Counted from the stretch's first letter, positions 39,951-54,633 are shown. The stretch is DNA of 64,000 nucleotides from Candidatus Sysuimicrobiota bacterium (GCA_040289515.1 PSLI01000005.1:1-64000); one strand, 5' to 3'. Numbers and translations are program-made. Notes: generated by a model from the letters alone, not told the origin.

Positions 39951-40008
39951 GCGTCCCCCCTGCACGTCCCACGTTATTGAACGCCGCATCGGCCGGGTTT
40001 GGAGCCTT

Positions 40009-40070
40009 GGGCCCTGTCCCCTAGGACAGTCCCCCAAGGCCCTGTCCCCAGGGGACAGGGCCTTGGGGGA
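40009..40070. repeat. GGCCCTGTCCCC units and perfect 20-bp inverted repeat
   Basis: TCCCCCAAGGCCCTGTCCCC-A-GGGGACAGGGCCTTGGGGGA at 40030-40070, plus upstream direct copies. Confidence 0.92.
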
Positions 40071-40151
40071 GCCGGCAGCCCCGGCCAGGCCCTCCCACCG
40101 GGCTGTCGGGAGCCTCCCGCAGGATTCGAAAGCGTACAATGCGGGTTGGAG

Positions 40152-41795
40152 ATGACCCGCCAGCAGCTGGAGAACCTTCTGCGGCGTAAGTCGGCGGAGA
40201 TCGCCGCCCTGCGGGAGATCAGCCGCACCATCAGCCAAGCCCATGACCTGGACACCACCCTGACCACCATCACCCGCAAGACCGCGGAGGTCATGGGCAT
40301 GGACTCCTGCTCCGTGTACCTTCTGGACCCCCAGGGGGAGTACCTGGTGCTGCGGGCCACCACGGGCCTGGCACCGGAGGCGGTGGGGCGGGCTCGCCTG
40401 CGGCTCGGGGAGGGGCTGACAGGGTGGGCCGCGCTGCACGAGCAGCCTGCCTGGAGCAGCGACGCGCCCAGCGACCCCCGGTTCGTGCTGCTCCCCGAGA
40501 CCGAGGAGCTGCGCTTCCAGTCCCTGCTGGCCGTCCCCCTGACGGTGGGCGGCCGGGTGCTGGGGGCCATGAACGTGCAAACCCGCACCACCCACGAGTT
40601 CACCGAGGACGAGGTGGAGCTGGTCAGCATGATCGCGGACCTCGCCGGGGGGGCCATCGAGAAGGCCACCCTGCACGACCACATGCGGCGCCAGATCCGC
40701 GAGCTTTCTACCCTCGCGGAGCTCAGCCAGACCCTGGCCTCGCCCCTGTACCTGGAGCAGGTGCTGCAGGTCATCGTGCAGATGGCCGCCCGCATGCTGG
40801 AGGCCCGGCTGTGCTCCCTGCTGCTGGTGGATGAGACCGCGGGGCTCCTGCGGCCCGCGGCGGCCCACCCGGCAGGCGAGGCGTACACGGAACGGGCTCC
40901 CATCCCCCTGGGGGCCGGGATCGCGGGCCGGGTGGCCCAGACGGGTGAGAGGGAGGTGGTACCGGATCTGCTGGCCGAGCCCCGTTTTTCGGACCCCGAG
41001 TTCGCTTCCCGGGAGGAGCTTCGGTCCATGGTGTCGGTGCCCCTGCGGGTCCGAGACCGAATCATCGGCGTGCTGAACTGCTACCGTGGCCAACCCGCGG
41101 CTTTCAGCCCCGCGGACGTGAACCTCCTGACCACCCTCGCCACGCAGACGGCCCTGGCCATCGAGAACGCCAACCTGGTCATGCGGTCCGCGGTGGTGCG
41201 GGAAATGCACCACCGGGTCAAGAACAACCTCCAGACCATCGCCATGCTGCTGCGTCTGCAGCTGGCGGACGGCCGCGAGCCTTCCGGCCGCGAGGTCCTC
41301 ACGGAGACCATCAACCGCGTCCTGGGTATCGCCGCGGTGCACGAGATCCTGTCCCTGGAAGGGTTCCGCACCGTGAACCTGCGGGAGGTGCTGGATCGGC
41401 TCACCCACGCGGTGGTGGCCAACATGCGACGGCCCGATCTAGACCTCGAGGTGTCGGTGCAGGGCGACGACGTGTACTTCCCCTCCCAGCCCGCCACCTC
41501 CGCGGCCCTGGTAGCCACAGAGCTGGTCCAGAACGCTCTGGAGCACGCCTTCCGGGGCCGCACCCGCGGACGGCTGTGGGTGCGCCTGGTGGACACTGCC
41601 AGTCACGTGGTGCTGGAGGTGGAGGACGACGGTACCGGACTGCCGGAGGGGTTCGACCCGGAGACCTGTTCCGACCTGGGCCTGCGCATCGCCCGGACCC
41701 TGGTCCGGGAGGACCTGAAGGGAGAGCTTTTGGCCTGCGGGGGCCTGGGCGCCCGGTTCGTGGTTCGCATCCCCAAGGAGGTTTTGGGCGCGTGA
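40152..41795 (+). CDS. GAF-GAF sensor histidine kinase (HisKA_2, PdtaS/EutW-like)
   Basis: Two GAF repeats, EMHHRVKNNLQ, ELVQNALEHAF, DDGTG, LGL; no TM segments seen. Confidence 0.92.
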   Translation: MTRQQLENLLRRKSAEIAALREISRTISQAHDLDTTLTTITRKTAEVMGMDSCSVYLLDPQGEYLVLRATTGLAPEAVGRARLRLGEGLTGWAALHEQPAWSSDAPSDPRFVLLPETEELRFQSLLAVPLTVGGRVLGAMNVQTRTTHEFTEDEVELVSMIADLAGGAIEKATLHDHMRRQIRELSTLAELSQTLASPLYLEQVLQVIVQMAARMLEARLCSLLLVDETAGLLRPAAAHPAGEAYTERAPIPLGAGIAGRVAQTGEREVVPDLLAEPRFSDPEFASREELRSMVSVPLRVRDRIIGVLNCYRGQPAAFSPADVNLLTTLATQTALAIENANLVMRSAVVREMHHRVKNNLQTIAMLLRLQLADGREPSGREVLTETINRVLGIAAVHEILSLEGFRTVNLREVLDRLTHAVVANMRRPDLDLEVSVQGDDVYFPSQPATSAALVATELVQNALEHAFRGRTRGRLWVRLVDTASHVVLEVEDDGTGLPEGFDPETCSDLGLRIARTLVREDLKGELLACGGLGARFVVRIPKEVLGA

Positions 41796-42361
41796 AGCGC
41801 ATCGTGGTGGCGGATGACGAAGCCCTGATCCGCATGGGGTTGCGGGCCATGCTGGAGGACCGCGGCTACCGGGTGGTGGGCGAAGCCTCCGACGGCCGGC
41901 GGGCCGTGGAGCTGGTGGTGCGTCTGCGGCCGGACCTGGTGTTCCTGGACGCGAAGATGCCGGGGATGGACGGGCTTGCGGCGGCTGCTCGTATCCAGCA
42001 GGTGTGCCCGACCCCCGTGGTACTGCTCACCGCGTACAGCGAGCGGGAACTGATCAAGCAGGCCCAGCAGGTGGGCGTGCTGGCCTACCTGGTGAAGCCT
42101 ATCAAGGAGGAGGACCTCGTTCCCACCATCGAGGTGGCCCTGGCCCGCTTCGCGGACCTCCAGCGCAAGGCCCAGCGCATCGAGGAGCTGGAAGAACAGC
42201 TGCACACCCGCAAGCTGGTGGAGCGGGCCAAGGGGTTGCTGATGCAGCGGGAGGGCCTGTCGGAGGAGGAAGCGTTCCGCCGGATCCAGGGGGAGGCCCG
42301 CCGCACCCGCCGCACCATGCGGGAGGTGGCCCTGCAGATCCTCAGCGAGCAGCCCTCGTAG
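41792..42361 (+). CDS. ANTAR-domain response regulator (PdtaR/EutV-like)
   Basis: ADDE, LDAKMP, TAYS, KP receiver; RKLVERAKGLLM...EEEAFRRIQ ANTAR. Confidence 0.93.
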   Translation: MKRIVVADDEALIRMGLRAMLEDRGYRVVGEASDGRRAVELVVRLRPDLVFLDAKMPGMDGLAAAARIQQVCPTPVVLLTAYSERELIKQAQQVGVLAYLVKPIKEEDLVPTIEVALARFADLQRKAQRIEELEEQLHTRKLVERAKGLLMQREGLSEEEAFRRIQGEARRTRRTMREVALQILSEQPS

Positions 42362-44056: not shown

Positions 44057-44637
44057 CGCCGCAGCCCCCCTGCCAGCCGCTCCACGTACTTGGCCAGCAC
44101 GTCCACCTCCAGGTTCACCGGGTCGCCCACACCCCGCTGCCCCAGGGTCGTGGCCTGGAGTGTCTTCGGGATCAGACACACGAGGAAGCTGCCGGACTTC
44201 ACGCCCGCCACCGCGAGGCTCACCCCGTCCACCGACACCGATCCCCGCTCCACCAGGTACCGCATCACCTTCGGAGGTGCCGCCACCTCCATCCACCGCG
44301 CCTGCCGCTCCGGTCGCACCGCCCTCACGCAGCCAACGGCGTCCACGTGTCCCTGCACCAGGTGGCCACCCAGGGGCTGCCCGAGCCTCAGCGGCCGCTC
44401 CAGGTTCACAAAGTCCCCGGGCTTCCGGACGCCGAGGGTGGTGCGCTGGAGGGTCGCAGGGCCCAGGTCGGCCTCAAAATACGCCCGGCCCACCCACACC
44501 GCGGTCAGGCACACCCCGTCCACAGCCACGCTGTGGCCCTCCTGCAGGCCGCGGACCACCCGCCGGGCCTGCACGCGCAGGCGGCCGCCTCGCAGCCAAG
44601 CCACCCGGCCCACCTCCTCCACGATCCCGGTGAACAT
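44053..44637 (-). CDS. ribE: Riboflavin synthase alpha chain
   Basis: [30 protein letters not shown]. Confidence 0.95.
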
Positions 44638-45620
44638 CAGCCGTCCCCGCGCAGACGGCCGCGCACCTCCGCCACGAAGGCCACCACGCGGTCCACCAGG
44701 CCAGTACAGAAAAGCGAGGCGTGCAGCTCGGCACCCCCCTCCGCCAGCACGCTCAGCACCCCGCGCTCGGCCAGCCGGCGCAGCACGTCCTGAAGGGAAA
44801 CCCGCTCGCCTTGGGCCTCACACACCCACACCTCCGCGCCCGCGCGCTGCAGCTGGTCCTTCCGCTCCGGGGCCGCATGGGGGGTCGTGGCCACCACGAC
44901 CTTCGAGGACCCCTGCCGCAGCATCCGGGCGTTAGGCGGAAGATGCAACTGGCTATCGACCACCACCCGCAGGGGGTCCCGGCCACCCGGGATCCGGCAC
45001 GTGAGGGCGGGGTCGTCCCGTAGGGCGGTACCGCAGCCTACCAGGACAGCATCGTGCTGGTCCCGCAGACGGTGCGCGAACTCCCGGGCTGATGTGCCTG
45101 TAATCCACCGCGCCTGTCCCGCGCGGGTGGCCATACGGCCGTCCGCGGACATGGCCCACTTGGCGGTCACCCACGGCAGACCTGTCGACCGGTGCTTCAC
45201 GTAGGCGGCGTTGAGCTGCCGTCCTTCCTCCTCCAGGACGCCCAGCGTTACCTCCACCCCGGCCTCCCGGAGGCGGCGGATTCCGCGGCCGCCCACCCTG
45301 GGGTCTGGGTCCCCCATGGCCACCACCACCCGTTGGATCCCCGCAGCAAGGATGGCCTCGGTACACGGGGGTGTGCGGCTGTGGTGGTTGCAGGGCTCCA
45401 GATTCACGTACAGGGTGGCGCCTTGGGCCTGCGGACCTGCGCGCTCCAGGGCCATGGCTTCCGCGTGCGGGTAACCCGCGGCCTGGTGGTAACCCCACCC
45501 GGCCTCCGTGCCGTCCCGCACCACCACCGCGCCCACCATGGGGTTGGGGCTGGTGCGCCCCTGGCCCATGGAGGCAAGTTGCAGGGCCCGTCGCATCCAG
45601 AAGGCGTCCTGCAAACGCAT
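44637..45620 (-). CDS. ribD: Bifunctional deaminase/reductase RibD (C-terminus looks shortened)
   Basis: PNPMVGAV, HAE, LEPCNH...PPC, EGG. Confidence 0.92.
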   Translation of the reverse strand: MRLQDAFWMRRALQLASMGQGRTSPNPMVGAVVVRDGTEAGWGYHQAAGYPHAEAMALERAGPQAQGATLYVNLEPCNHHSRTPPCTEAILAAGIQRVVVAMGDPDPRVGGRGIRRLREAGVEVTLGVLEEEGRQLNAAYVKHRSTGLPWVTAKWAMSADGRMATRAGQARWITGTSAREFAHRLRDQHDAVLVGCGTALRDDPALTCRIPGGRDPLRVVVDSQLHLPPNARMLRQGSSKVVVATTPHAAPERKDQLQRAGAEVWVCEAQGERVSLQDVLRRLAERGVLSVLAEGGAELHASLFCTGLVDRVVAFVAEVRGRLRGDG

Positions 45621-45735
45621 GCGCCCGGAGGTAGAACCTCCGGGCGCCGCTTAACGCAAGGCCGCTGGCGGATCCCGAACCCGTGGTCCGGGCCGTCGGT
45701 GACAAGGGCGCCTGCACTACCGGAAGCGCCCCGGC

Positions 45736-45911
45736 GACCTTCTCCCATCCGGACTGTACCGTCGGCCCCGGACTGGGCTCCTCTAAGCCTCCACCGGAGT
45801 CCACCGCGCCGCAGACCGTACGCGGGTCGCGGGCTCGCACCGGCCCTGCCGGTGCCCACCGCCGGTCGGGAATCGGGGACCGTACAGCCCCCTCACCCTG
45901 CCCCGAAGGTC
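45736..45911 (-). ncRNA. FMN riboswitch (RFN element)
   Basis: CTTCGGGGCAGGGTGA...TTCCCGACCGGCGGT...AGCCCGCGA...CCGGGGCCGACGGTACAGTCCGGATGGGAGAAG upstream of ribD; TATAAT at 45925-45930. Confidence 0.95.
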
Positions 45912-46021
45912 CTACCGCGGCCTCATTATACTAGTTCGCACGTTTCAAGGCGCAACGTTCGAAAATGCCGACCCTTTCCCCTGGCCACGCTTCGCCGTGA
46001 AAACTTTTGGCCGCGGACCGG

Positions 46022-46050
46022 TTGACAGCCGCAGCCTACATTGCTATCTA
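46022..46050 (+). promoter_or_regulatory. Promoter for gltB leader
   Basis: TTGACA-17 nt-(TG.)TATCTA. Confidence 0.65.
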
Positions 46051-46072: not shown

Positions 46073-46192
46073 GAGGGAGTGCGCCTAGGGTTCCGCGGCC
46101 TGCACCCACCAGGCCGGTCTGGGCCAAGCGGCGCAGGCGGGAGATCTGGCCCGCTACACCGTCGGGACAAAAGCCCGAGGGGGAGGTTCCTC
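46073..46192 (+). ncRNA. ykkC-family riboswitch, subtype-2-like (ppGpp/PRPP class)
   Basis: CCTAGGGTTCCG...GTCTGGGCCAAGCGG...ACACCGTCGGGACAAAAGCCCG core; 5' GAGGGA pairs with 3' TTCCTC (P0). Confidence 0.85.
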
Positions 46193-46226
46193 AGGCAGAG
46201 GCCCCCTCGGGCTTCGGGTTATTTTT
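46171..46226 (+). terminator. Riboswitch expression-platform terminator
   Basis: AAGCCCGAGGGGG/CCCCCTCGGGCTT 13-bp stem overlapping the aptamer 3' end, then TTATTTTT. Confidence 0.75.
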
Positions 46227-46255: not shown

Positions 46256-49200
46256 GTGACGTCTTTGGCGGCGTTTCCGGAGCGCGACGCGTGCGGGGTG
46301 GGGTTCGTAGCGCGGCTGGACGGAGTCCCCTCCCACGCGGTGCTCCAGGCCGCACTGCGCGCTCTGCGCAACCTGGCCCACCGGGGAGCCCAGGCGGCGG
46401 ACGGCCGCACGGGGGACGGAGCGGGCATCCTCACCGAGATTCCGCACGGGCTGTTTGCCCGCGTTCTGCGGGAAATGGGCTACCGTGGCGACGAGGGGCC
46501 CCTGGTCGTGGGAATGTTCTTCTTCCCCACCGCGGAGGACCGCTACCGGGCCTGCCGGGAGGCGTGTGACGCGGAGTTCGCCCGCGCAGGCCTGCGGCTG
46601 CTGGGATGGCGGACGCCCCCGGTGCAGCCTAAGGCCCTGGGCGAATACGCCCTGCGCACCCTGCCCCGCATCCAGCAAGCCCTGCTGACCCCGCTGGTGG
46701 AGTGGGAGCCCGAGGCGCTGGAACGGCACCTGTACCTGGTTCGGCGCCGCATCGAGAAGCGCACAGCATCCCTGGGACTGTACATCCCTTCCCTATCCTG
46801 CCGGACGGTGGTGTACAAAGCCCTGGTCTCCGCCCCGCAGCTGGAGCGCTTCTACCTGGACCTTCAGGATCAGGACTTCGCGGTGCGGGCTGCAGTGTTC
46901 CACCAGCGCTACAGCACCAACACCCACCCCTCCTGGCAGCTGGCGCAGCCCTTCCGCTTGGTGGCCCACAACGGTGAGATCAACACGCTGCTGGGGAACG
47001 TGAACTGGATGCGGGCCCGGGAGGGCGACCTGCGCAGCAGCGTGTGGGAGGACCGGCTGCAGGAGCTGCTCCCCGTGATCCAGGACGGGGGCAGCGACAG
47101 CGCCATGCTGGACAATGTGCTGGAGCTGGTGCGCCGCAGCGGCCGTGACCTTCCCCACGCGGTGCGGATGTTGGTGCCCGAGGCGTGGGAGGGCGCCTGG
47201 AACCTGGACGCGGCCGTGCGGGCCTTCTATCGCTACCACGCGTGCCTTGCCGAACCGTGGGACGGGCCGGCGGCGTTGGCCTTCTTCGATGGCCGCACGG
47301 TGGGGATGGCCCTGGACCGCAACGGCCTGCGTCCAGCCCGGTATACCGTCACCCACGAAGGCCTGGTGGTGGCCGGCTCCGAGGTGGGCGTCCTGCCCAT
47401 CCCGCCCGGACGGGTCCTGGAGAAGGGCCGGCTGGGTCCGGGAGAGATGGTGGTGGTGGACCTGGAGGAGCGGCGTTTCCTGCACCACCCCGAGATCCTC
47501 CAGCGTCTGTCCCGGCGCCGTCCGTACGTCAAGTGGGTGGAGCGCCTGGTGCGGGTGGAGCCTAAGCCGAAGTCCTGTTCCCCGGAGGAGCGGGTGGACC
47601 TGCTGCACCTGGCGTTCGGCTACACGAAGGAGGACCTGCAGCGGGTGCTACAAGCCATGGCGGCGGAGGGCAAGGACCCCGTGGGCTCCATGGGCGACGA
47701 CACCCCTCCCTCGGCCCTGTCCAGCCAGCCACGGCTGCTGTACCAGTTCTTCCGCCAGCGGTTCGCTCAGGTCACCAACCCGCCCATCGATCCCTTGCGG
47801 GAGCGGGTGGTGATGTCCCTGGAGGTGCGGCTGGGGGCTCGCCGTTCCTTCCTGGAGGAAGGGCCGGAGCACGCGGATCTGGTGGAGCTAGCCAGCCCCG
47901 TGCTGCCGGACCTGGACTGGCTGGAGGAGGTTCCCCTGCAGCCCAAGCTTCTGGACGCTACCTTCGAAGCGGAACGGGGCGCGCACGGGCTAGAGGAGGC
48001 TTTGGACCACCTGTGCCGCCAGGCCGAGGAAGCGGTGCGCGCGGGCTGCACCGCCCTGGTTCTCAGCGACCGCCGGGTGAACCGCGAGCGGGCGCCCATC
48101 CCGGCCCTGCTGGCCACCGCGGCGGTGCACCACCACCTGATCCGCCGAGGCCTGCGCCTGCGGACCGCGTTGCTGGTGGAAACCGGAGAGGCCCGGGAGG
48201 TGCATCACGTGGCCTGCCTGGTGGGCTACGGTGCCGAGGGGGTCTACCCTTACCTAGCGCTCGCCACCGCCCAACGCCTGTCCAGTCAGGGTGCCGGCAA
48301 CCTCAAGAAGGCTCTTGAAGCCGGGCTGCTCAAGGTCATGGCCAAGATGGGCATCGCCCCCCTGCAGGCTTACTGCGGGGCGCAGATCTTCGAGACCATC
48401 GGGCTCGAGCAGAGCCTGGTGGATCGCTACTTTCCGGGCACCCCCAACCACGTGCCGGGCGTTGGGCTGGCGGCCCTGGCGCGGGACGTGCTGGAGCGGC
48501 ACGCCGCCTACCGCCGGGCCCTGGCGGGCGAACCCGCCACGGTGCCGGACCTCGGGTTTTACCGGTACCGGCACGGGGGCGAGCAGCACGGGTTCGAGCC
48601 GGACGTGGTAAAAGCTATCCACCGGGTGAGCTTGAACGGTCCCGCAGCGTACCCTGATCTTGCGGAGCTGGTGAGCGCCCGGCCTCCGCAGGCCCTGCGG
48701 GACCTGCTGGAGATCCAGCCCGCGGGGCCTCCGGTTCCCCTGGAGGAGGTGGAGCCCGCGGAGCGCATCCTCCGCCGGTTCGTCATCTCCGCCATGTCCC
48801 ACGGGGCTCTGTCCCGGGAGGCCCACGAGACGCTGGCCATCGCCGCCAACCGCCTGGGCATGCGCTGCAACAGTGGGGAGGGCGGCGAGGACCCTGCCCG
48901 CCGCCAGGTGCGGCCCAACGGCGACTGGCCCAACACCACCATCAAGCAGGTGGCCTCCGGCCGGTTCGGCGTCACCGCGGGCTACCTGCGCTCTGCGGTG
49001 GAGCTGGAGATCAAGATGGCGCAGGGCAGCAAGCCGGGGGAGGGTGGTCAGCTGCTGGGGCACAAGGTGACCGAAGAGATCGCGCGGCTGCGCAAGACCC
49101 AGCCGGGTACCGCCCTCATCTCGCCCCCGCCCCACCACGACATCTACAGCATCGAGGACCTGGCGCAGCTCATCTACGATCTCAAGCAGGTGCACCCCAC

Positions 49201-50659
49201 CGCGCACGTGGCGGTGAAGCTGGTGGCCACCACCGGGGTTGGCACCATCGCCTCCGGCGTGGCCAAGGGTTTCGCGGACGTGGTGCAGATCAGCGGTCAC
49301 GAGGGCGGCACCGGTGCTTCCCCCCTGGACTCCATCAAGAACGCAGGGCTGCCCTGGGAGGTGGGGTTGAGCGAGGTCCGCCGAGCGTTGAGCGCCAACG
49401 GCCTGCGGGGTCGGGTGCGGATCCGGGTGGACGGCGGGTTCAAGGTGGGCCGGGACGTGGTGCTGGCAGCCCTACTGGGGGCGGACGAGTTTGGGTTTGG
49501 CACCGCGGCCCTGGTGGCCCTGGGCTGCGTCATGGCCCGGCAGTGCCACAACAACACCTGCCCCGTGGGCATCGCCACCCAGCGGGAGGACCTGCGCAGC
49601 AAGTTCCCGGGTACGCCCGAGCGGGTGGAGGCGTACTTCCGGGCCCTGGCGGAGGACGTGCGGCGACAGCTGGCCCAGATGGGTGCGCGCTCCCTGGAGG
49701 AGATCATCGGGCGCGTGGACCTCCTCCGGGTTCGGGACGACGTGCGCCTGAACCGCGCCGAGCAGCTGGACCTGTCCGAGCTTTTACAGCCCGCACACGG
49801 CCAGACCCGAGGCAGCTTTGCGGCCCCCCTGCCCGTGGAGGGTCCGTTGAACCGGCTGCTGGTGGAGCAGTACCGGCAGACCATCGAGCACGGCGTGCCC
49901 GCGGAGGGACACCACCCCATCACGAACCGGGACCGCACCGTGGGCGCCACCCTGGCGGGCGAGATCGCGCAGCGGTGGGGTGACGCGGGCCTGCCGGAGG
50001 GCACCCTCCGCCTCACCTTCGAGGGGGAAGCCGGCCAGAGCTTCGGGGCCTTCTGCATGCCGGGCATGCAGCTGCGCCTGGTGGGCGAGGCCAACGACTA
50101 CGCGGGCAAGGGGATGTCGGGGGGTGAGATCGTCCTGGTGCCGCCGCCTCCGTTGCACCGGGACAGCTGGCGGCACGTCATCGTGGGCAACACGGTGCTG
50201 TACGGAGCCACCGGCGGGGTGTTCTTCGCCGCCGGCCGGGCTGGGGAGCGGTTCGCAGTGCGCAACAGCGGCGCGGTGGCGGTGGTGGAGGGCGCGGGAG
50301 ACCACTGCTGCGAGTACATGACCGGCGGTGTGGTGGTGGTCCTGGGTCCCGTGGGCCGCAACGTCGGTGCGGGCATGACGGGCGGGCGCGCCTACGTGCT
50401 GGACGAGGCGGGCGTGCTGGATCGCCAGATCAACGCCGACTCTGTACAGACCGCGCCCCTGTCCGAGCCGGAGGCGGAAGAGCTGCGGGCGCTTTTGGTG
50501 GGCTACCACGAGGCCACGGGAAGCCACCGGGCCCAGCTGCTCCTGCGGCGGTGGCCGCGCGTGGTGCACCAGTTCCGGGCGGTGCGGCCGCGCTCCGCGG
50601 CGGAAGTCCCCGTGCAGGTGCCCGCCCGAAGCACCGGTGCAGCCCGCCGGGCCCGTTGA
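46256..50659 (+). CDS. gltB: Glutamate synthase large subunit
   Basis: ERDACGVGF, HNGEINT, MSHGALS, IKQVASGRFGVT, EIKMAQGSKPGEGGQL, 3Fe-4S Cys motif, GXGXG domain. Confidence 0.97.
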   Translation: MTSLAAFPERDACGVGFVARLDGVPSHAVLQAALRALRNLAHRGAQAADGRTGDGAGILTEIPHGLFARVLREMGYRGDEGPLVVGMFFFPTAEDRYRACREACDAEFARAGLRLLGWRTPPVQPKALGEYALRTLPRIQQALLTPLVEWEPEALERHLYLVRRRIEKRTASLGLYIPSLSCRTVVYKALVSAPQLERFYLDLQDQDFAVRAAVFHQRYSTNTHPSWQLAQPFRLVAHNGEINTLLGNVNWMRAREGDLRSSVWEDRLQELLPVIQDGGSDSAMLDNVLELVRRSGRDLPHAVRMLVPEAWEGAWNLDAAVRAFYRYHACLAEPWDGPAALAFFDGRTVGMALDRNGLRPARYTVTHEGLVVAGSEVGVLPIPPGRVLEKGRLGPGEMVVVDLEERRFLHHPEILQRLSRRRPYVKWVERLVRVEPKPKSCSPEERVDLLHLAFGYTKEDLQRVLQAMAAEGKDPVGSMGDDTPPSALSSQPRLLYQFFRQRFAQVTNPPIDPLRERVVMSLEVRLGARRSFLEEGPEHADLVELASPVLPDLDWLEEVPLQPKLLDATFEAERGAHGLEEALDHLCRQAEEAVRAGCTALVLSDRRVNRERAPIPALLATAAVHHHLIRRGLRLRTALLVETGEAREVHHVACLVGYGAEGVYPYLALATAQRLSSQGAGNLKKALEAGLLKVMAKMGIAPLQAYCGAQIFETIGLEQSLVDRYFPGTPNHVPGVGLAALARDVLERHAAYRRALAGEPATVPDLGFYRYRHGGEQHGFEPDVVKAIHRVSLNGPAAYPDLAELVSARPPQALRDLLEIQPAGPPVPLEEVEPAERILRRFVISAMSHGALSREAHETLAIAANRLGMRCNSGEGGEDPARRQVRPNGDWPNTTIKQVASGRFGVTAGYLRSAVELEIKMAQGSKPGEGGQLLGHKVTEEIARLRKTQPGTALISPPPHHDIYSIEDLAQLIYDLKQVHPTAHVAVKLVATTGVGTIASGVAKGFADVVQISGHEGGTGASPLDSIKNAGLPWEVGLSEVRRALSANGLRGRVRIRVDGGFKVGRDVVLAALLGADEFGFGTAALVALGCVMARQCHNNTCPVGIATQREDLRSKFPGTPERVEAYFRALAEDVRRQLAQMGARSLEEIIGRVDLLRVRDDVRLNRAEQLDLSELLQPAHGQTRGSFAAPLPVEGPLNRLLVEQYRQTIEHGVPAEGHHPITNRDRTVGATLAGEIAQRWGDAGLPEGTLRLTFEGEAGQSFGAFCMPGMQLRLVGEANDYAGKGMSGGEIVLVPPPPLHRDSWRHVIVGNTVLYGATGGVFFAAGRAGERFAVRNSGAVAVVEGAGDHCCEYMTGGVVVVLGPVGRNVGAGMTGGRAYVLDEAGVLDRQINADSVQTAPLSEPEAEELRALLVGYHEATGSHRAQLLLRRWPRVVHQFRAVRPRSAAEVPVQVPARSTGAARRAR

Positions 50660-50785
50660 CACGGGCCCGCGGGCGGGTTACCCTCAGCTCGAAACCTGAA
50701 GCCGCGCCAGGACGCCGGCCCGACAGCCGGCGTCTCCTTTTTCGGAGGCCAAGACGCCCCGACCGGCCGGGCGCTGCTCTTTTTT
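50656..50785 (+). promoter_or_regulatory. Promoter and leader with two hexaloop hairpins each overlapping a terminator (candidate ANTAR targets)
   Basis: TTGACA-17-TACCCT; loops CAGGAC (50708-50713) and CAAGAC (50750-50755); terminators 50711-50742 and 50755-50785. Confidence 0.75.
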
Positions 50786-50807
50786 CAAACAGGCAAGGGG
50801 GTCCAGC

Positions 50808-51395
50808 GTGAGCAAGCGGATCGTGATCGCCGAGGACGAGGCGGTGGTCCGCATGGGGGTGCGGGCCATCCTGGAGGCGGCGGGCTACCGGGTGGCAGGA
50901 GAGGCGGCCAACGGCGAGGAGTGCCTGGAGCTGGTGCGCTCCTGCGACCCCGACCTCGTGATCCTGGACGTGCGCATGTCCCCGCCGGACGGCATCGAGG
51001 TGGCCCGTCGGCTGCGGGAGACGTCCCCACGGCCGGTGGTGTTCCTCACCGCCTTCAGCGACCGGCAGCTGCTGGAGGCCGCCGCGGAAGCCGGAGCCTA
51101 CGGATACGTGGTAAAGCCCGTGGTGGGCGCAGAGCTGCTGGCGGCCGTGGAGCTGGCCTGGGCCCGCTGGCGCGACCTGCAGGAGGCCCGGGAGGCCCTG
51201 CAGACCCGCAAGCTGGTGGAGCGGGCCAAGGGCGTGCTGATGCGGCGGCTGGGGCTCGGGGAGGAGGAAGCGTACCGCCTGCTGCAGCGCCGCAGCCGTA
51301 ACCTGCGGCGCCCCATGCGGGAGGTGGCGCAGGCGGTCCTGGTGCAGGAGGAGATCGTCTCGCAGTCCTCCAAGCCAAAGCCGAAACCCCGTTGA
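50808..51395 (+). CDS. ANTAR-domain response regulator (second paralog)
   Basis: AEDE, LDVRM, TAFS, KP receiver; RKLVERAKGVLM...EEEAYRLLQ ANTAR. Confidence 0.93.
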   Translation: MSKRIVIAEDEAVVRMGVRAILEAAGYRVAGEAANGEECLELVRSCDPDLVILDVRMSPPDGIEVARRLRETSPRPVVFLTAFSDRQLLEAAAEAGAYGYVVKPVVGAELLAAVELAWARWRDLQEAREALQTRKLVERAKGVLMRRLGLGEEEAYRLLQRRSRNLRRPMREVAQAVLVQEEIVSQSSKPKPKPR

Positions 51396-51523
51396 CAACC
51401 GCCCGCGGGGTTGGTATAAGAACGGTAGGCTGGGCCGGGACGCCCGTGGGTGCGGACGTCCCGGCCCTTTGTGTTTCGCAGACACTTCGGGCCAGGACGC
51501 CCTCCCGGGCGTCCTGTGCTTTT
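51392..51523 (+). promoter_or_regulatory. amtB promoter and leader with two hexaloop hairpin/terminator units (candidate ANTAR targets)
   Basis: TTGACA-17-TATAAG; GGGC-CGGGAC-GCCC 51432-51445 and GGGC-CAGGAC-GCCC 51489-51502; terminators 51432-51476 and 51493-51523. Confidence 0.8.
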
Positions 51524-51536
51524 CCGGGAGGGAGCG

Positions 51537-52900
51537 ATGCGTAGACTCGGCATCCTGGTTGGTGCTTTTGCCCTGCTGGCCTGCGCCCCCGCCGCCTGGG
51601 CCGCAGACCCCGCGGGGCCGCTACCCTGAAGGCCAGCCCGTCCGCACCGGTGAACTTCACCTGGACCTTGGTGGCGGCTTTCCTGGTGTTCTTCATGCAG
51701 GCGGGGTTCGCCCTCTTGGGCGCGGGTCTTATTCGCTCCAAGAACACCGTCAACTACCTCACCAAGAGCTACATGGACTTCAGCATCGCGGCCCTCAGCT
51801 ACTGGGCCTTCGGCTTCGCCCTCATGTTCGGCGGCAGCAAGCTGGCTAGCGGCCTGGAGTACGGGAACGCCTGGGTGGGGCTTTCGGGCTTCTTCCTGAG
51901 CGGCGCGGCCTACGACGTTACCACGACCCTGTATTGGTTCTTCCAGATGGTGTTCGCGGCCACCGCGGCCACCATCGTGGCGGGCGCCGTGGCGGAGCGC
52001 ACCAAGATCCAGGCATACCTGGCGTACAGCTTCATCGTGAGCGCCCTCATCTACCCGATCTACGGGCACTGGGTGTGGGGCGGGGGCTGGCTGGCCAACC
52101 TCCCCTTCGGGGCGGGGGCGAAGGACTTCGCGGGTTCCGGCGTGGTGCACACGGTGGGCGGTCTGCTGGGCCTGATGGGTGCCGCCATGGTGGGGCCCCG
52201 AATCGGCAAGTTCAACCCCGACGGAACCCCCAACCCCATCCCCGGCCACAACATGGTGTACGTGGTCACGGGCACCTTCATCCTGTTCTTCGGGTGGTTC
52301 GGCTTCAACCCGGGTAGCACCCTGGCCGCCACGGACCTGCGCATCTCCATCATCGCGGTGAACACCTTCCTGGCCGGTGCGGCGGGCGGCGTGGTGGCTT
52401 TGTACGCCACCCTGGCCCGCACGGGCAAGGCCGACATCGCCATGGCCTGCAACGGCGCCCTGGCGGGCCTGGTGGGCATCACGGCCCCCTGCGCCTACGT
52501 GGCCCCGTGGGCCGCGGTGGTGATCGGCGGCGTGGCGGCCCTGGTCATGATGTGGAGCCTCGGGTTTGTGGAGCGGGTGCTGAAGGTGGACGACCCCGTG
52601 GGCGCGGTATCCGTGCACGCCGCGGGTGGCCTGTGGGGGCTGCTGGCGGTGGGGATCTTCGCGGACGGTACTTACCAGAACGTCCGCGGCCTCATCGTGG
52701 GCGAGGTGGGCCAGCTGATCGCACAGCTGATCAGCATGGGTGCGGTGACCGTGTGGACCCTCGCCACCGGGTACCTGATGTTCGCCCTGCTCCGGGCCAC
52801 CATCGGGCTGCGGGCCTCCCGGGAGGAGGAGTTGCAGGGCCTGGACATCCCCGAGCACGGAGTGCCCGCCTACGTCCTGGAGCCCGCGCCCGGGCTGTAG
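51537..52900 (+). CDS. amtB: Ammonium transporter, frameshift after the signal peptide (51614-51617)
   Basis: FMQAGFA, GAVAER, DFAGSGVVH, GWFGFN, DDPVGAVSVH; ATG 51537 with RBS encodes a signal peptide out of frame with the body (51650-52900). Confidence 0.92.
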
Positions 52901-52949
52901 GAGGAGAGGTTTGCACGGCCACACTTTCCGGAAAGGAGGTCGGAGGTCC

Positions 52950-53057
52950 ATGGAAGCTTGGCTCGCACTGGGATCCTTCGTGCTGCTGTTCTGCGCGTGG
53001 GTGGTGCTGCCCAGCCGGCTTTTGCGGCGCGCGCGGCGGGCCGAGGAGGAGGTTTGA
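52950..53057 (+). CDS. 35-aa single-pass membrane peptide
   Basis: Not in ORF track; RBS AAAGGAGGTCGGAGG; MEAWLALGSFVLLFCAWVVLPSRLLRRARRAEEEV*. Confidence 0.7.
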   Translation: MEAWLALGSFVLLFCAWVVLPSRLLRRARRAEEEV

Positions 53058-53157
53058 CAGCCGGCCCGGGGTTGTGCTATAAGAGCTGCGAACCCAATCG
53101 GGAATCCTGCGGGCCGCGACGCCCCTGCGCCATCGGCGCCGGGGCGTCTTTGCGTTT
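53054..53157 (+). promoter_or_regulatory. glnA promoter and leader with hexaloop hairpin/terminator (candidate ANTAR target)
   Basis: TTGACA-18-(TG.)TATAAG; GGGC-CGCGAC-GCCC 53111-53124; terminator 53118-53157. Confidence 0.75.
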
Positions 53158-53193
53158 CGGGGAAAGACTTCTGAGGAGCGGAGGTGCAGACAG

Positions 53194-54633
53194 ATGGTTC
53201 CAAGGACGCCCAGCGACGTGCTGGCCCTGATCAAGGAGAAGGAGATCCAGATGGTGGACCTGCGGTTCACCGACCTGCCGGGGACCTGGCAGCACACCTC
53301 CGTCCCCGCCTCCCAGGTAGACCTGTCCACCTTCACCAAGGGCATCGGGTTCGACGGCAGCAGCATCCGGGGCTTCCAGGCCATCCAGGAGAGCGACATG
53401 CTGCTGGTGCCAGACCCCAGCACCGCCTTCGTGGATCCCTTCCTGGAGATCCCCACTCTGGTCATGATCTGCGACGTGGTGGACCCGGAGACCCGGGCCC
53501 CCTACTCCCGTGACCCCCGGTACGTGGCCCGCAAGGCGGAGGCGTACCTGAAGGAAACGGGGATCGCGGACCTGAGCTTCTGGGGCCCGGAGATCGAGTT
53601 CTTCATCTTCGACCACGTCACCTACGAGGTGGCGCCCCACCGGATGGGCTACTCCATCGACAGCCGGGAGGGCATCTGGAACAGCGGCAACGGGGAAGGG
53701 AAGAATCTGGGCTACAAGATCCGGCCCAAGGAGGGGTACTTCCCCACCCCGCCCACCGACACCTTCCAGGACATCCGCAGCGAGGCGGCCCTCCTCCTGG
53801 AACGGATCGGCATCCCCGTGGAGATGCACCACCACGAGGTGGCCACCGCCGGCCAGGCGGAGGTGGACATGGAGCGGGACAGCCTGGTGCGCATGGCGGA
53901 CAAGGTCATGGTGTACAAGTACGTGATGCGGAACGTGGCCCGGCGCCACGGTTGCACCGTGACCTTTATGCCCAAACCCCTCTTCGGCGACAACGGGAAC
54001 GGCATGCACACCCACCAGAGCCTGTGGAAGGACGGCCGCAACCTGTTTTACGCGGAGGGCGGCTACGCGGAGCTCAGCCCTCTCGCCCTCCACTACGTGG
54101 CCGGTCTGCTCACCCACGTGGACAGCTTGCTGGGCTTCACCAGCCCCACCACCAACTCCTACAAGCGGCTGGTTCCCCACTACGAGGCGCCCGTGAACGT
54201 GGCCTTCAGCAAGCGCAACCGCAGCGCCTGCGTGCGCATCCCCATGTACTATTCCGGTCCGGAATCTGCGGCCAGCAAGCGGGTCGAGTTCCGGCCTCCG
54301 GATCCCAGCTGCAACCCGTACCTGGCCTTCGCGGCTATGCTCATGGCAGGGCTGGACGGCGTTCGCCGGAAGCTGGACGCTTCCCCCTTCGGGTCCCTGG
54401 ACGTGAACACCTATGAGTTGCCGCCGGAGGAGGCAGCCCGGGTGAAGAGCGTGCCCGGCTCCCTGGGGGCGGTGCTGGACGCCCTGGAGGCGGACCACGA
54501 GTACCTGCTGGAGGGCGACGTGTTCACCCGGGACCTGATCGACACCTGGGTGGCGTACAAGCGGGAACGCGAGCTCCACGAGGTGAACATCCGGCCCCAC
54601 CCGTACGAGTTCTACCTGTACTTCGACGTCTGA
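53194..54633 (+). CDS. glnA: Glutamine synthetase type I
   Basis: FDGSSIRGF, HHEVATAGQ, FMPKPLFGDNGNGMH, NRSACVRIP; adenylylation-site Tyr in NTYELPPEE. Confidence 0.97.
   Translation: MVPRTPSDVLALIKEKEIQMVDLRFTDLPGTWQHTSVPASQVDLSTFTKGIGFDGSSIRGFQAIQESDMLLVPDPSTAFVDPFLEIPTLVMICDVVDPETRAPYSRDPRYVARKAEAYLKETGIADLSFWGPEIEFFIFDHVTYEVAPHRMGYSIDSREGIWNSGNGEGKNLGYKIRPKEGYFPTPPTDTFQDIRSEAALLLERIGIPVEMHHHEVATAGQAEVDMERDSLVRMADKVMVYKYVMRNVARRHGCTVTFMPKPLFGDNGNGMHTHQSLWKDGRNLFYAEGGYAELSPLALHYVAGLLTHVDSLLGFTSPTTNSYKRLVPHYEAPVNVAFSKRNRSACVRIPMYYSGPESAASKRVEFRPPDPSCNPYLAFAAMLMAGLDGVRRKLDASPFGSLDVNTYELPPEEAARVKSVPGSLGAVLDALEADHEYLLEGDVFTRDLIDTWVAYKRERELHEVNIRPHPYEFYLYFDV

Follow-up and report, generated by a model that had tools for sequence, protein, structure and literature searches.

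Five short RNA hairpins that share a CNNGAC hexaloop, each joined to a terminator, occur in three consecutive leaders of a nitrogen assimilation locus of an uncultured hot-spring bacterium of Candidatus Sysuimicrobiota (CSP1-3), and we consider it probable that they are antitermination switches controlled by ANTAR-domain regulators. The locus lies in the 64-kb stretch of DNA analysed here (the window), part of a 2.0-Mb host genome (G000) that is 96.7% complete. Comparison with relatives points to a real, conserved and phylum-wide set of predicted terminator switches. The element is a variant of a well-described mechanism and not a new mechanism. ANTAR targets are described as two tandem hexaloop hairpins, P1 and P2, with A at loop position 1 (A1) and G at position 4 (G4), P2 overlapping the terminator (Ramesh 2012, PMC3369931), whereas here position 1 is C (C1) and each terminator has one hairpin.

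On the + strand, the end of the glutamate synthase gene gltB is followed by a 148-nt leader, the REC-ANTAR response regulator gene, a 141-nt leader, the ammonium transporter gene amtB, an open reading frame (ORF) of 35 aa, a 136-nt leader and the glutamine synthetase gene glnA (Table 1). A search with the pattern GCCNNGACGCC found five copies in the window, all on the + strand (50706, 50748, 51434, 51491 and 53113) and all in the leaders of the regulator gene, amtB and glnA. Their loops are CAGGAC (starting at 50708), CAAGAC (50750), CGGGAC (51436), CAGGAC (51493) and CGCGAC (53115), and the members of the two pairs are 42 and 57 nt apart. Positions, loops, spacings and the assignment to three consecutive leaders agree with an earlier prediction for this DNA (the original prediction), which had also placed the hairpins downstream of TTGACA promoters. 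Such boxes do precede the hairpins of each leader, together with -10-like boxes, and sites 1, 3 and 5 begin about 10-30 nt past the predicted transcript starts. Both the TTGACA-17-TAnnCT arrangement of promoter 1 and promoter 2 are kept in same-genus orthologs, and TTGAC(A/G)...TG(G/C)TATAA(G/A), corresponding to promoter 3, is found in 7/7 aligned family-f1 glnA leaders. A scan for a strict promoter consensus listed no promoter, as it demands T in the final -10 position. Three TGA stop codons, those of gltB, of the regulator gene and of the small ORF (50657-50659, 51393-51395 and 53055-53057), each fall within the -35 hexamer TTGACA of the promoter that follows, and no terminator lies between gltB and attenuator 1. 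The placing of stop codons in -35 boxes is also conserved in same-genus relatives.

Folds and a terminator scan agree that loop bases 4-6 together with the hairpin's 3' arm make up the 5' arm of each terminator, and that a GC-rich stem is followed by a U-rich tail. Sites 1, 3, 4 and 5 have 8-11 bp GC-rich stems and at least five T in the 10-nt tail. The minimum free energy (MFE) folds of these four attenuator segments are the terminators, at -21.8 to -34.2 kcal/mol, the value at site 2 being -13.2; the hairpins have energies of -0.2 to -7.4 kcal/mol across the five sites. At attenuator 3 the terminator takes in the entire 5' arm and loop of the hairpin (hairpin -7.4 versus -34.2 kcal/mol), and at attenuator 5 it is built from an outer GACGCCCC/GGGGCGTC and an inner GCGCC/GGCGC helix (-6.8 versus -34.1 kcal/mol). 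The proposal that every hairpin shares an arm with its own terminator stands for all sites as to the sharing, and is weakened at site 2 as to the terminator. There, the hairpin itself stays in the MFE fold, and when the entire leader is folded, a predicted long-range helix pairs about 50700-50708 with 50770-50778 and adjoins the U tract of attenuator 2. All five loops are of 6 nt. The GC core proposed for every hairpin is closed by 3-5 bp at sites 2-5; at site 1 it has only two contiguous pairs (G50706-C50715 and C50707-G50714), or six if C50705 bulges.

The 11-mer count in the window is not above chance (5 versus 3.84 +/- 2.02 expected, with at least five in 36 of 100 shuffles), and the 56 copies in the genome are mostly within long open frames. 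We therefore did not accept the motif count alone as evidence, both the 11-mer and the 10-mer being as frequent as in shuffles, and loose hairpin-plus-terminator genome scans were dropped as too permissive (1852 and 248 matches) in favour of covariance models. The first model, R1, was built on sequence and terminator helix from an alignment of 51 sites (A1; the five window sites and 46 from relatives). It scores the five sites at 44.4, 42.6, 36.7, 33.0 (site 1) and 20.2 bits in the host genome. No further site was found among the 150 scored of about 4965 first-look candidates in the 2.0 Mb, the next match (18.3 bits, E 1.1) having a different loop. The covariance-model check proposed with the original prediction thus returns these leaders alone in the host genome. 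To avoid circularity, a second model, R2, was rebuilt from the 46 sites of relatives only (A2), and the window was searched with filters off. Site 1 was scored apart, since matches overlapping a better match are removed. R2 gives 42.9 bits for site 5, 42.3 for site 4, 35.8 for site 3, 26.0 for site 2 and 24.5 for site 1. These are the top + strand matches in 64 kb, the best other reaching 14.6 bits; on the minus strand there are matches of 21.2 bits, to the reverse complement of site 3, and of 17.8 bits, inside amtB. Context, not motif count, distinguishes the five sites from chance. Three other candidates were not kept. C5:41955, with loop CGCGAT, was not among the R1 matches and is flanked by the end of one gene and by a gene resembling that of aspartate racemase; C8:63292 is inside an open frame, and C34:7558 has loop CGTAGA.

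In the alignment of 51 sites, 96.4% of the terminator-helix cells are paired and three pairs show compensatory change, a score that 0/500 shuffles reach; the loops and inner stems of the terminators differ freely from site to site. In the small hairpin, the three inner pairs are invariant. The five bases GGCCN located 5' of the terminator arm have pairing partners in that hairpin alone, and their conservation equals that of the arm. Loop position 1, proposed to be C from the five window sites, is C in 51/51, and A5 and C6 are found in 49/51 each. As T, G and T were permitted at positions 1, 5 and 6, respectively, by the pattern with which sites were collected, only C1, A5 and C6 are free observations. 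G4 is present in 5/5 window sites and also in the P1 loops of family f4, which were not selected for it. Invariant inner pairs and near-fixed loop positions 1, 4, 5 and 6 fit recognition of loop and top pairs by a sequence-specific protein, as reported for EutV (Ramesh 2012).

The motif is kept in the orthologous leaders of the ANTAR gene, amtB and glnA, as the original prediction demanded. All six same-genus genomes have motif and terminator before the regulator gene, five of them in two copies and the sixth (G001) in one, in agreement with the proposal that the regulator gene has attenuators in its own leader; one of the two copies is degenerate in L010. Two copies between the regulator gene and amtB are found in 5/6 of these genomes. 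Of the 30 glnA loci examined across the group, 20 have the element before the gene; the remaining 10 either have glnA within an operon or have the element at a greater distance upstream.

Some relatives have a second hairpin. In family f4, 7/9 glnA leaders carry GGTAC[YNNGNN]GTACC 2 nt upstream, with loops beginning with T or C; L017 has CGAC[CACGAC]GTCG 4 nt upstream, and L123 is also dual-hairpin. These cases provide a predicted link between the C1 variant and the canonical architecture, and the unrooted comparison suggests that the single-hairpin form may be a reduction of the dual form. RNAalifold on seven family-f1 glnA leaders predicted P2 only and no P1. A generic search found some upstream G4 hexaloop hairpin at 35/51 sites versus 23.3 +/- 3.6 (maximum 37) in shuffles; this count was rejected as a statistic, being too noisy in 70% GC DNA, and inspected cases only were used. 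As a separate observation, a box AAnnGAAT(C/A), here AACCCAATCG (53088-53099), lies about 10 nt past the predicted glnA start in 7/7 family-f1 glnA leaders (alignment A3). It forms no conserved hairpin and might be a remnant of the family-f4 P1 loop (TGAGCC, TAAGAC and similar).

The distribution was followed over the 94 species genomes of the phylum, which are the same set at class and phylum level. R1 at E<=0.01 matches 71 of them, with 1-6 sites each, and the motif is present in 71/81 genomes with an ANTAR gene versus 0/13 without. ANTAR regulator genes are the most frequent neighbours and targets of the element, and the synteny of ANTAR genes with glnA extends across families. A regulon census in relatives covered 19 fetched loci. 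Genes found behind the element include glnA, gltB (G024), amtB-glnB with tandem attenuators (families f5 and f2), ANTAR regulator genes of a third type (G037, G034, G025, G014 and G019), and genes for a GNAT acetyltransferase, a pyridoxal-phosphate-dependent decarboxylase and a conserved 46-59-aa protein of no family. In same-genus relatives the element also precedes an amtB followed by genes for a 400-aa protein, a flotillin-like protein and a second glutamine synthetase, a locus not found in the host genome. From these gene contents, the theme of the predicted regulon is nitrogen assimilation. R1 gave nothing convincing over 76 loci around REC/ANTAR homologues of other phyla, a small and biased sample; the best match there (24.1 bits, E 0.011) has no U tract. 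The absence of glnK from the window, already remarked upon in the original prediction, extends to the genome: no P-II (GlnB/GlnK) gene was found genome-wide, the Pfam P-II control being positive in 13/14 reference genomes. One clear sigma-54 activator is encoded elsewhere in the host genome.

Two of these targets deserve a description. In families f5 and f2 an attenuator is directly followed by the gene of the 46-59-aa protein (Table 1), which starts M..(H/R)(R/K)D(D)P(M/L).LW(V/I)G.W.PE and matches no Pfam family. It is presumably regulated by nitrogen, and one idea is that it could be a factor regulating glutamine synthetase. In family f4 an attenuator also precedes a GNAT acetyltransferase gene (L109:200-715(+) and L116:272-781(+)), with GNAT Pfam families confirmed. 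We take its sequence to resemble phosphinothricin/methionine-sulfoximine acetyltransferases, enzymes that protect glutamine synthetase from inhibitors.

The regulator encoded in the locus has the make-up of a REC-ANTAR response regulator. Pfam gives it Response_reg at 96.2 bits (cut-off 30.2) and ANTAR at 77.2 bits (cut-off 27.3). Against solved structures, it matches Rv1626 (1s8n, E 2.1e-40), the PdtaR of the PdtaS/PdtaR system of Mycobacterium tuberculosis and its best-scoring solved homologue, and EutV (6wsh/6ww6, E 7.4e-35). The phospho-acceptor Asp is kept, 'DLVILDVRM' aligning with 'DLVLMDIQM' of EutV, in which Asp54 is given as the modified residue (Walshe 2022, PMC8934654). Of the EutV RNA-contact residues, Arg142, Lys149 and Tyr164, which contact G4, are conserved in the alignment (chain numbering offset by 2 from that of the paper), and Met172 is replaced by Arg. 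No kinase gene adjoins the regulator gene.

The host genome encodes three ANTAR regulators. In a tree of 31 regulators of the group, two starred clades are distinguished, A with 'EEEAYRLL', which includes the locus-encoded regulator, and B with 'EEEAFRRI', which includes the second regulator of the window. The latter is encoded directly after a GAF-HisKA_2 kinase of PdtaS-like make-up, and the spacing of about 9 kb between this pair and the nitrogen locus is kept in four same-genus genomes. From its domains and position the pair is a candidate for an alternative or additional regulator. In family f4, a clade-B REC-ANTAR regulator heads an open frame of about 590-605 aa (L022:286-2103(-), L025, L026, L029, L032), with no Pfam family in the final 400 residues; it may be a genuine fusion, or the frame may be open by chance in GC-rich DNA.

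Several observations weigh against the ANTAR-dependent reading. There is no covariation in the hairpin stem because its pairs never vary, and what supports the predicted small hairpin is sequence conservation and analogy only. The pattern used for collecting sites required G4 and the GC closing pairs, so the G4 count in the 51 sites is not independent. Attenuator 2 is the weakest of the five, with a poor local terminator (a 5-bp stem and the T6 tract 6 nt further). At none of the five window sites is there a second hexaloop hairpin just upstream; sites 1 and 3 begin within about 10-20 nt of the predicted transcript starts, and at sites 2 and 4 the sole upstream hexaloop with G4 is the preceding attenuator's own hairpin. 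The 13 ANTAR-less genomes represent three lineages (eight of genus g7, four of g29, and G044), and therefore the association between motif and ANTAR genes rests on few independent events (losses). Finally, family-f5 genomes carry the motif next to their single ANTAR gene, and the five of these in the tree are of clade B, so the locus-encoded clade-A regulator need not be the binder.

Further discrepancies concern recognition itself and also bear on an alternative, that a non-ANTAR factor (another RNA-binding protein, a small RNA or a metabolite) recognises GGCCNNGACGCC and controls the attenuators. ANTAR binding is a prediction from sequence. The loop lacks the A1 of published ANTAR targets, including those of EutV, NasR and AmiR; Met172 of EutV, reported as obligatory for RNA binding (Walshe 2022), is replaced by Arg in both clades of the phylum; 10 of the 81 ANTAR-encoding genomes have no motif at E<=0.01; and the leaders match no Rfam family, even at E up to 10. 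Arg at this position is not a phylum-specific trait, an idea that we rejected since Chloroflexota regulators also have it: over 17 ANTAR segments from this and other phyla the residue is R in nine, M in seven and Q in one. We nevertheless judge a non-ANTAR factor to be rather unlikely, since the motif is missing from all 13 ANTAR-less genomes, ANTAR regulator genes are the most frequent neighbours and targets, and a G4 hexaloop on a terminator, together with the dual-hairpin form of family f4, is an ANTAR signature. As to a metabolite, a 14-nt hairpin is presumably too small to form a ligand pocket.

It is very improbable that the five are ordinary constitutive terminators of the gltB, regulator and amtB transcripts whose 5' arms are alike through descent or as a preferred sequence. 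Such a role would suit the lack of other terminators after gltB, the regulator gene and the small ORF, the stops of which lie in -35 boxes, and the finding of covariation in the terminator helix and not in the hairpin. However, all five stand between conserved promoters and start codons, where unconditional termination would silence glnA and amtB; the GGCCN bases, paired only in the small hairpin, match the terminator arm in conservation, unlike the freely varying loops and inner stems of the terminators; and the element is confined to nitrogen-gene leaders over a phylum. Least likely of all is a post-transcriptional role of the hairpins (processing, stability, or translational ANTAR sites of the mycobacterial type) with incidental terminators: although the closest solved homologue, Rv1626/PdtaR, belongs to a family described as acting on translation (bioRxiv 10.1101/660928), the ribosome-binding sites are 35-110 nt downstream of the hairpins, without overlap, and every hairpin is joined to a terminator with a U tract.

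Under ANTAR-dependent antitermination, the locus might work as follows. The sigma-70-type promoters would fire constitutively and, by default, the nascent RNA would fold into the terminator, so that polymerase would stop before the ANTAR regulator gene, amtB or glnA. Under an inducing condition, presumably nitrogen limitation, a phosphorylated REC-ANTAR dimer would bind the GGGC[CNNGAC]GCCC hairpin as the RNA emerges; candidates for the binder are the locus-encoded regulator (50808-51395), the PdtaR-like paralog (41795-42361), or both. Because the 5' arm of the terminator consists of G4-A5-C6 and the hairpin's 3' arm, a clamped hairpin would withhold G4-A5-C6-GCC(C) from it and allow read-through. 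With two attenuators in the leader of its own gene, activation should raise the level of the regulator, a positive feedback. Expression of amtB would need two successive read-throughs and that of glnA one. Since stops fall inside -35 boxes with no other terminators between, the attenuators, when closed, would also end the upstream transcripts; when open, they would let gltB, the regulator gene, amtB, the small ORF and glnA be fused into longer transcripts. With hairpins early in the transcripts and no P1 to pre-load the protein, capture would have to occur within about 20-30 nt, before the 3' arm of the terminator is made. Where a leader has two attenuators, the upstream hairpin could act as a P1 for the downstream one, as in the successive-binding model of EutV.

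A more far-reaching proposal, possible but doubtful in our opinion, is that the phylum as a whole uses a distinct ANTAR code. An invariant C1 hexaloop (C-N-N-G-A-C with a GC/GC top) would be read by ANTAR domains having Arg in place of the Met plug, and a single hairpin would beat a terminator completed about 20-30 nt later. If true, co-transcriptional ANTAR antitermination would have here its first natural example that lacks a recruiting P1 hairpin, and the speed or concentration normally owed to P1 would come from tandem attenuators and from the regulator's control of its own gene.

Precedents exist for the mechanism, for its use in nitrogen control, for attenuators in series and for single sites, and the original prediction overstated the novelty of the system. 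As here, the targets of EutV (eut, Enterococcus faecalis), NasR (nasF) and AmiR (amiE) are described as G4 hexaloop hairpins with conserved closing pairs, the 3' half lying in the terminator, with a REC-ANTAR regulator encoded nearby and nitrogen metabolism as the target. They differ in A1 versus C1 (T was also allowed in collecting our sites) and in having two hairpins per terminator, whereas here the first hairpin of each tandem pair has a terminator of its own as well. ANTAR regulons predicted in Desulfotomaculum acetoxidans and D. reducens comprise genes for P-II, an ammonium transporter and glutamine/glutamate synthases, with at least 13 attenuators in six transcription units of D. acetoxidans (Ramesh 2012), so serial attenuators in a nitrogen regulon are not new. 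Those regulons, as presented there, were found with an A1/G4 dual-hairpin model and differ from ours in lineage and loop consensus.

Single sites are not new either. In Geobacter sulfurreducens, kinase-dependent binding of GnfR, partner of GnfK, is reported to CAGGCAANGGCGCC, a single conserved sequence overlapping terminator-like hairpins in the nifH, glnK and amtB leaders (Ueki and Lovley 2010, PMC2995071). The likeness extends to a REC-ANTAR protein and to single sites upstream of and overlapping a terminator-like hairpin in nitrogen-gene leaders. Drawn as a hairpin, which is our reading and not that of the paper, the GnfR site would be GC[AANGGC]GC, thus A1/G4 and unlike the loops found here; furthermore, the promoters there are described as RpoN-dependent whereas those of our locus are sigma-70-like, and here glnA and the regulator gene itself are targets. 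In the EutV structure, the ANTAR dimer is reported to contact one hexaloop, with G4 stacked on Tyr164 and no specific contact to A1, and the minimal motif was redefined as a single hexaloop, single-hexaloop sites being predicted (Walshe 2022, PMC8934654). As these contacts are limited to one hexaloop and spare A1, C1 and the single hairpin are, by analogy, not at odds with the known structure. Compared with that work, single hairpins here sit directly on terminators and Met172 is Arg in the regulators of the phylum. An actinobacterial survey gives the conservation of A1 and G4 as only 'more than 50%', and mycobacterial PdtaR targets, described as translational with dual stem-loops, differ from the present elements. 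The ANTAR-target descriptions found in our literature search all have A1/G4 loops. The search found no gene-regulation work in print for Ca. Sysuimicrobiota (CSP1-3), and the phylum literature that it returned is without ANTAR, glnA, glutamine synthetase or antitermination. New with respect to the literature searched are a lineage with C1 fixed, one hairpin directly on each short terminator, and regulation in this phylum.

Table 1. Features of the nitrogen locus, its surroundings in the window, and related loci. Promoters are predicted.
Feature	Position	Strand	Details
Second regulator pair	39999..42361	+	2xGAF-HisKA_2-HATPase_c kinase 39999-41795, then REC-ANTAR ~41795-42361; clade B, PdtaR-like
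ribD	44637-45620	-	Pfam dCMP_cyt_deam_1 + RibD_C
gltB	46256..50659	+	Glutamate synthase large subunit; ORF; Pfam GATase_2, Glu_syn_central, Glu_synthase, GXGXG
Promoter 1	50656..50684	+	TTGACA 50656-50661, 17 nt spacer, TACCCT 50679-50684; sequence reading
Attenuator 1	50701..50745	+	CAGGAC loop 50708-50713; terminator stem 50710-50735; U-rich tail 50736-50745
Attenuator 2	50747..50785	+	GGC[CAAGAC]GCC 50747-50758; local stem 50755-50759/50769-50773; T6 tract 50780-50785
REC-ANTAR regulator gene	50808..51395	+	195 aa, GTG start; Pfam
Promoter 2	51392..51420	+	TTGACA 51392-51397, 17 nt spacer, TGgTATAAG extended -10, TATAAG 51415-51420
Attenuator 3	51431..51478	+	TGGGC[CGGGAC]GCCCG 51431-51446; terminator 51432-51467; tail TTTGTGTTTCG 51468-51478
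Attenuator 4	51489..51526	+	GGGC[CAGGAC]GCCC 51489-51502; terminator 51493-51516; tail TGCTTTTCCG 51517-51526
amtB	51537..52900	+	Pfam Ammonium_transp 414.5 bits
Small ORF	52950..53057	+	35 aa, one predicted hydrophobic helix; translation; conserved in same-genus and family relatives
Promoter 3	53054..53083	+	TTGACA 53054-53059, 18 nt spacer, TGcTATAAG, TATAAG 53078-53083
Attenuator 5	53111..53159	+	GGGC[CGCGAC]GCCC 53111-53124; terminator 53118-53148; tail TTTGCGTTTCG 53149-53159
glnA	53194..54633	+	Glutamine synthetase type I; Pfam Gln-synt_N, Gln-synt_C
46-59-aa protein gene	L108:5791-5970	-	
46-59-aa protein gene	L112:5736-5894	-	
46-59-aa protein gene	L115:5758-5898	-	
46-59-aa protein gene	L120:242-391	+	

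Two genes of the locus call for comment. The reading frame of amtB is broken: a signal-peptide ORF (51537-51629; MRRLGILVGAFALLACAPAAWAADPAGPLP, with its stop ending at 51629) is out of frame with the Ammonium_transp ORF (51650-52900). Since the same-genus orthologs run through in one frame, a 1-nt gap is implied near 51618-51622. An assembly error, a real frameshift or the use of an internal GTG start are possible explanations; the second amtB of the relative G001 (L105) has a similar frame break. The small ORF between amtB and glnA encodes MEAWLALGSFVLLFCAWVVLPSRLLRRARRAEEEV, for which the Pfam scan gave no family. Its N-terminal sequence also heads the 400-aa protein encoded behind the second amtB of relatives (L104, L105 and L110).

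Upstream of the locus, a ykkC/Guanidine-I-like aptamer (46074-46184, + strand) lies directly before gltB and is followed by a terminator-like hairpin (46198-46215) with a T-rich tail. It scores 57.7 bits, below the Rfam gathering score of 63, with an E value of 2.8e-8 over the full model length. Variants of ykkC subtype 2 such as the ppGpp class are reported upstream of glutamate synthase genes, and the aptamer may belong with these and not be a sensor of guanidine. In that case a riboswitch would control gltB in the host, whereas in the relative G024 gltB has an ANTAR-type attenuator (L111). A flavin mononucleotide (FMN) riboswitch (45733-45914, - strand) scores 56.3 bits, falling short of the gathering score of 66.2 on account of two long insertions rich in GC; its place upstream of ribD makes it almost certainly genuine. 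An overlapping ORF of 277 aa on the + strand (45192-46025), with no Pfam family, is probably not a gene. Outside the window, the loose hairpin scan also brought up a direct repeat at G000:C75:18419-18525, a 40-nt stretch (CTGCGGTCGAGCCTGGACG...TTGGTTTT) present twice, 66 nt apart.

For the biology of these uncultured thermophiles, the five elements and their relatives provide a phylum-wide, testable model of how ammonium uptake and assimilation may be switched on, in a host genome without P-II. As natural variants, they bear on the ANTAR mechanism itself: on the role of loop position 1, on whether one hexaloop may suffice during transcription, and on the role of the Met/Arg position. A covariance model of the C1 variant would recover targets that are missed by models built on A1/G4 loops.

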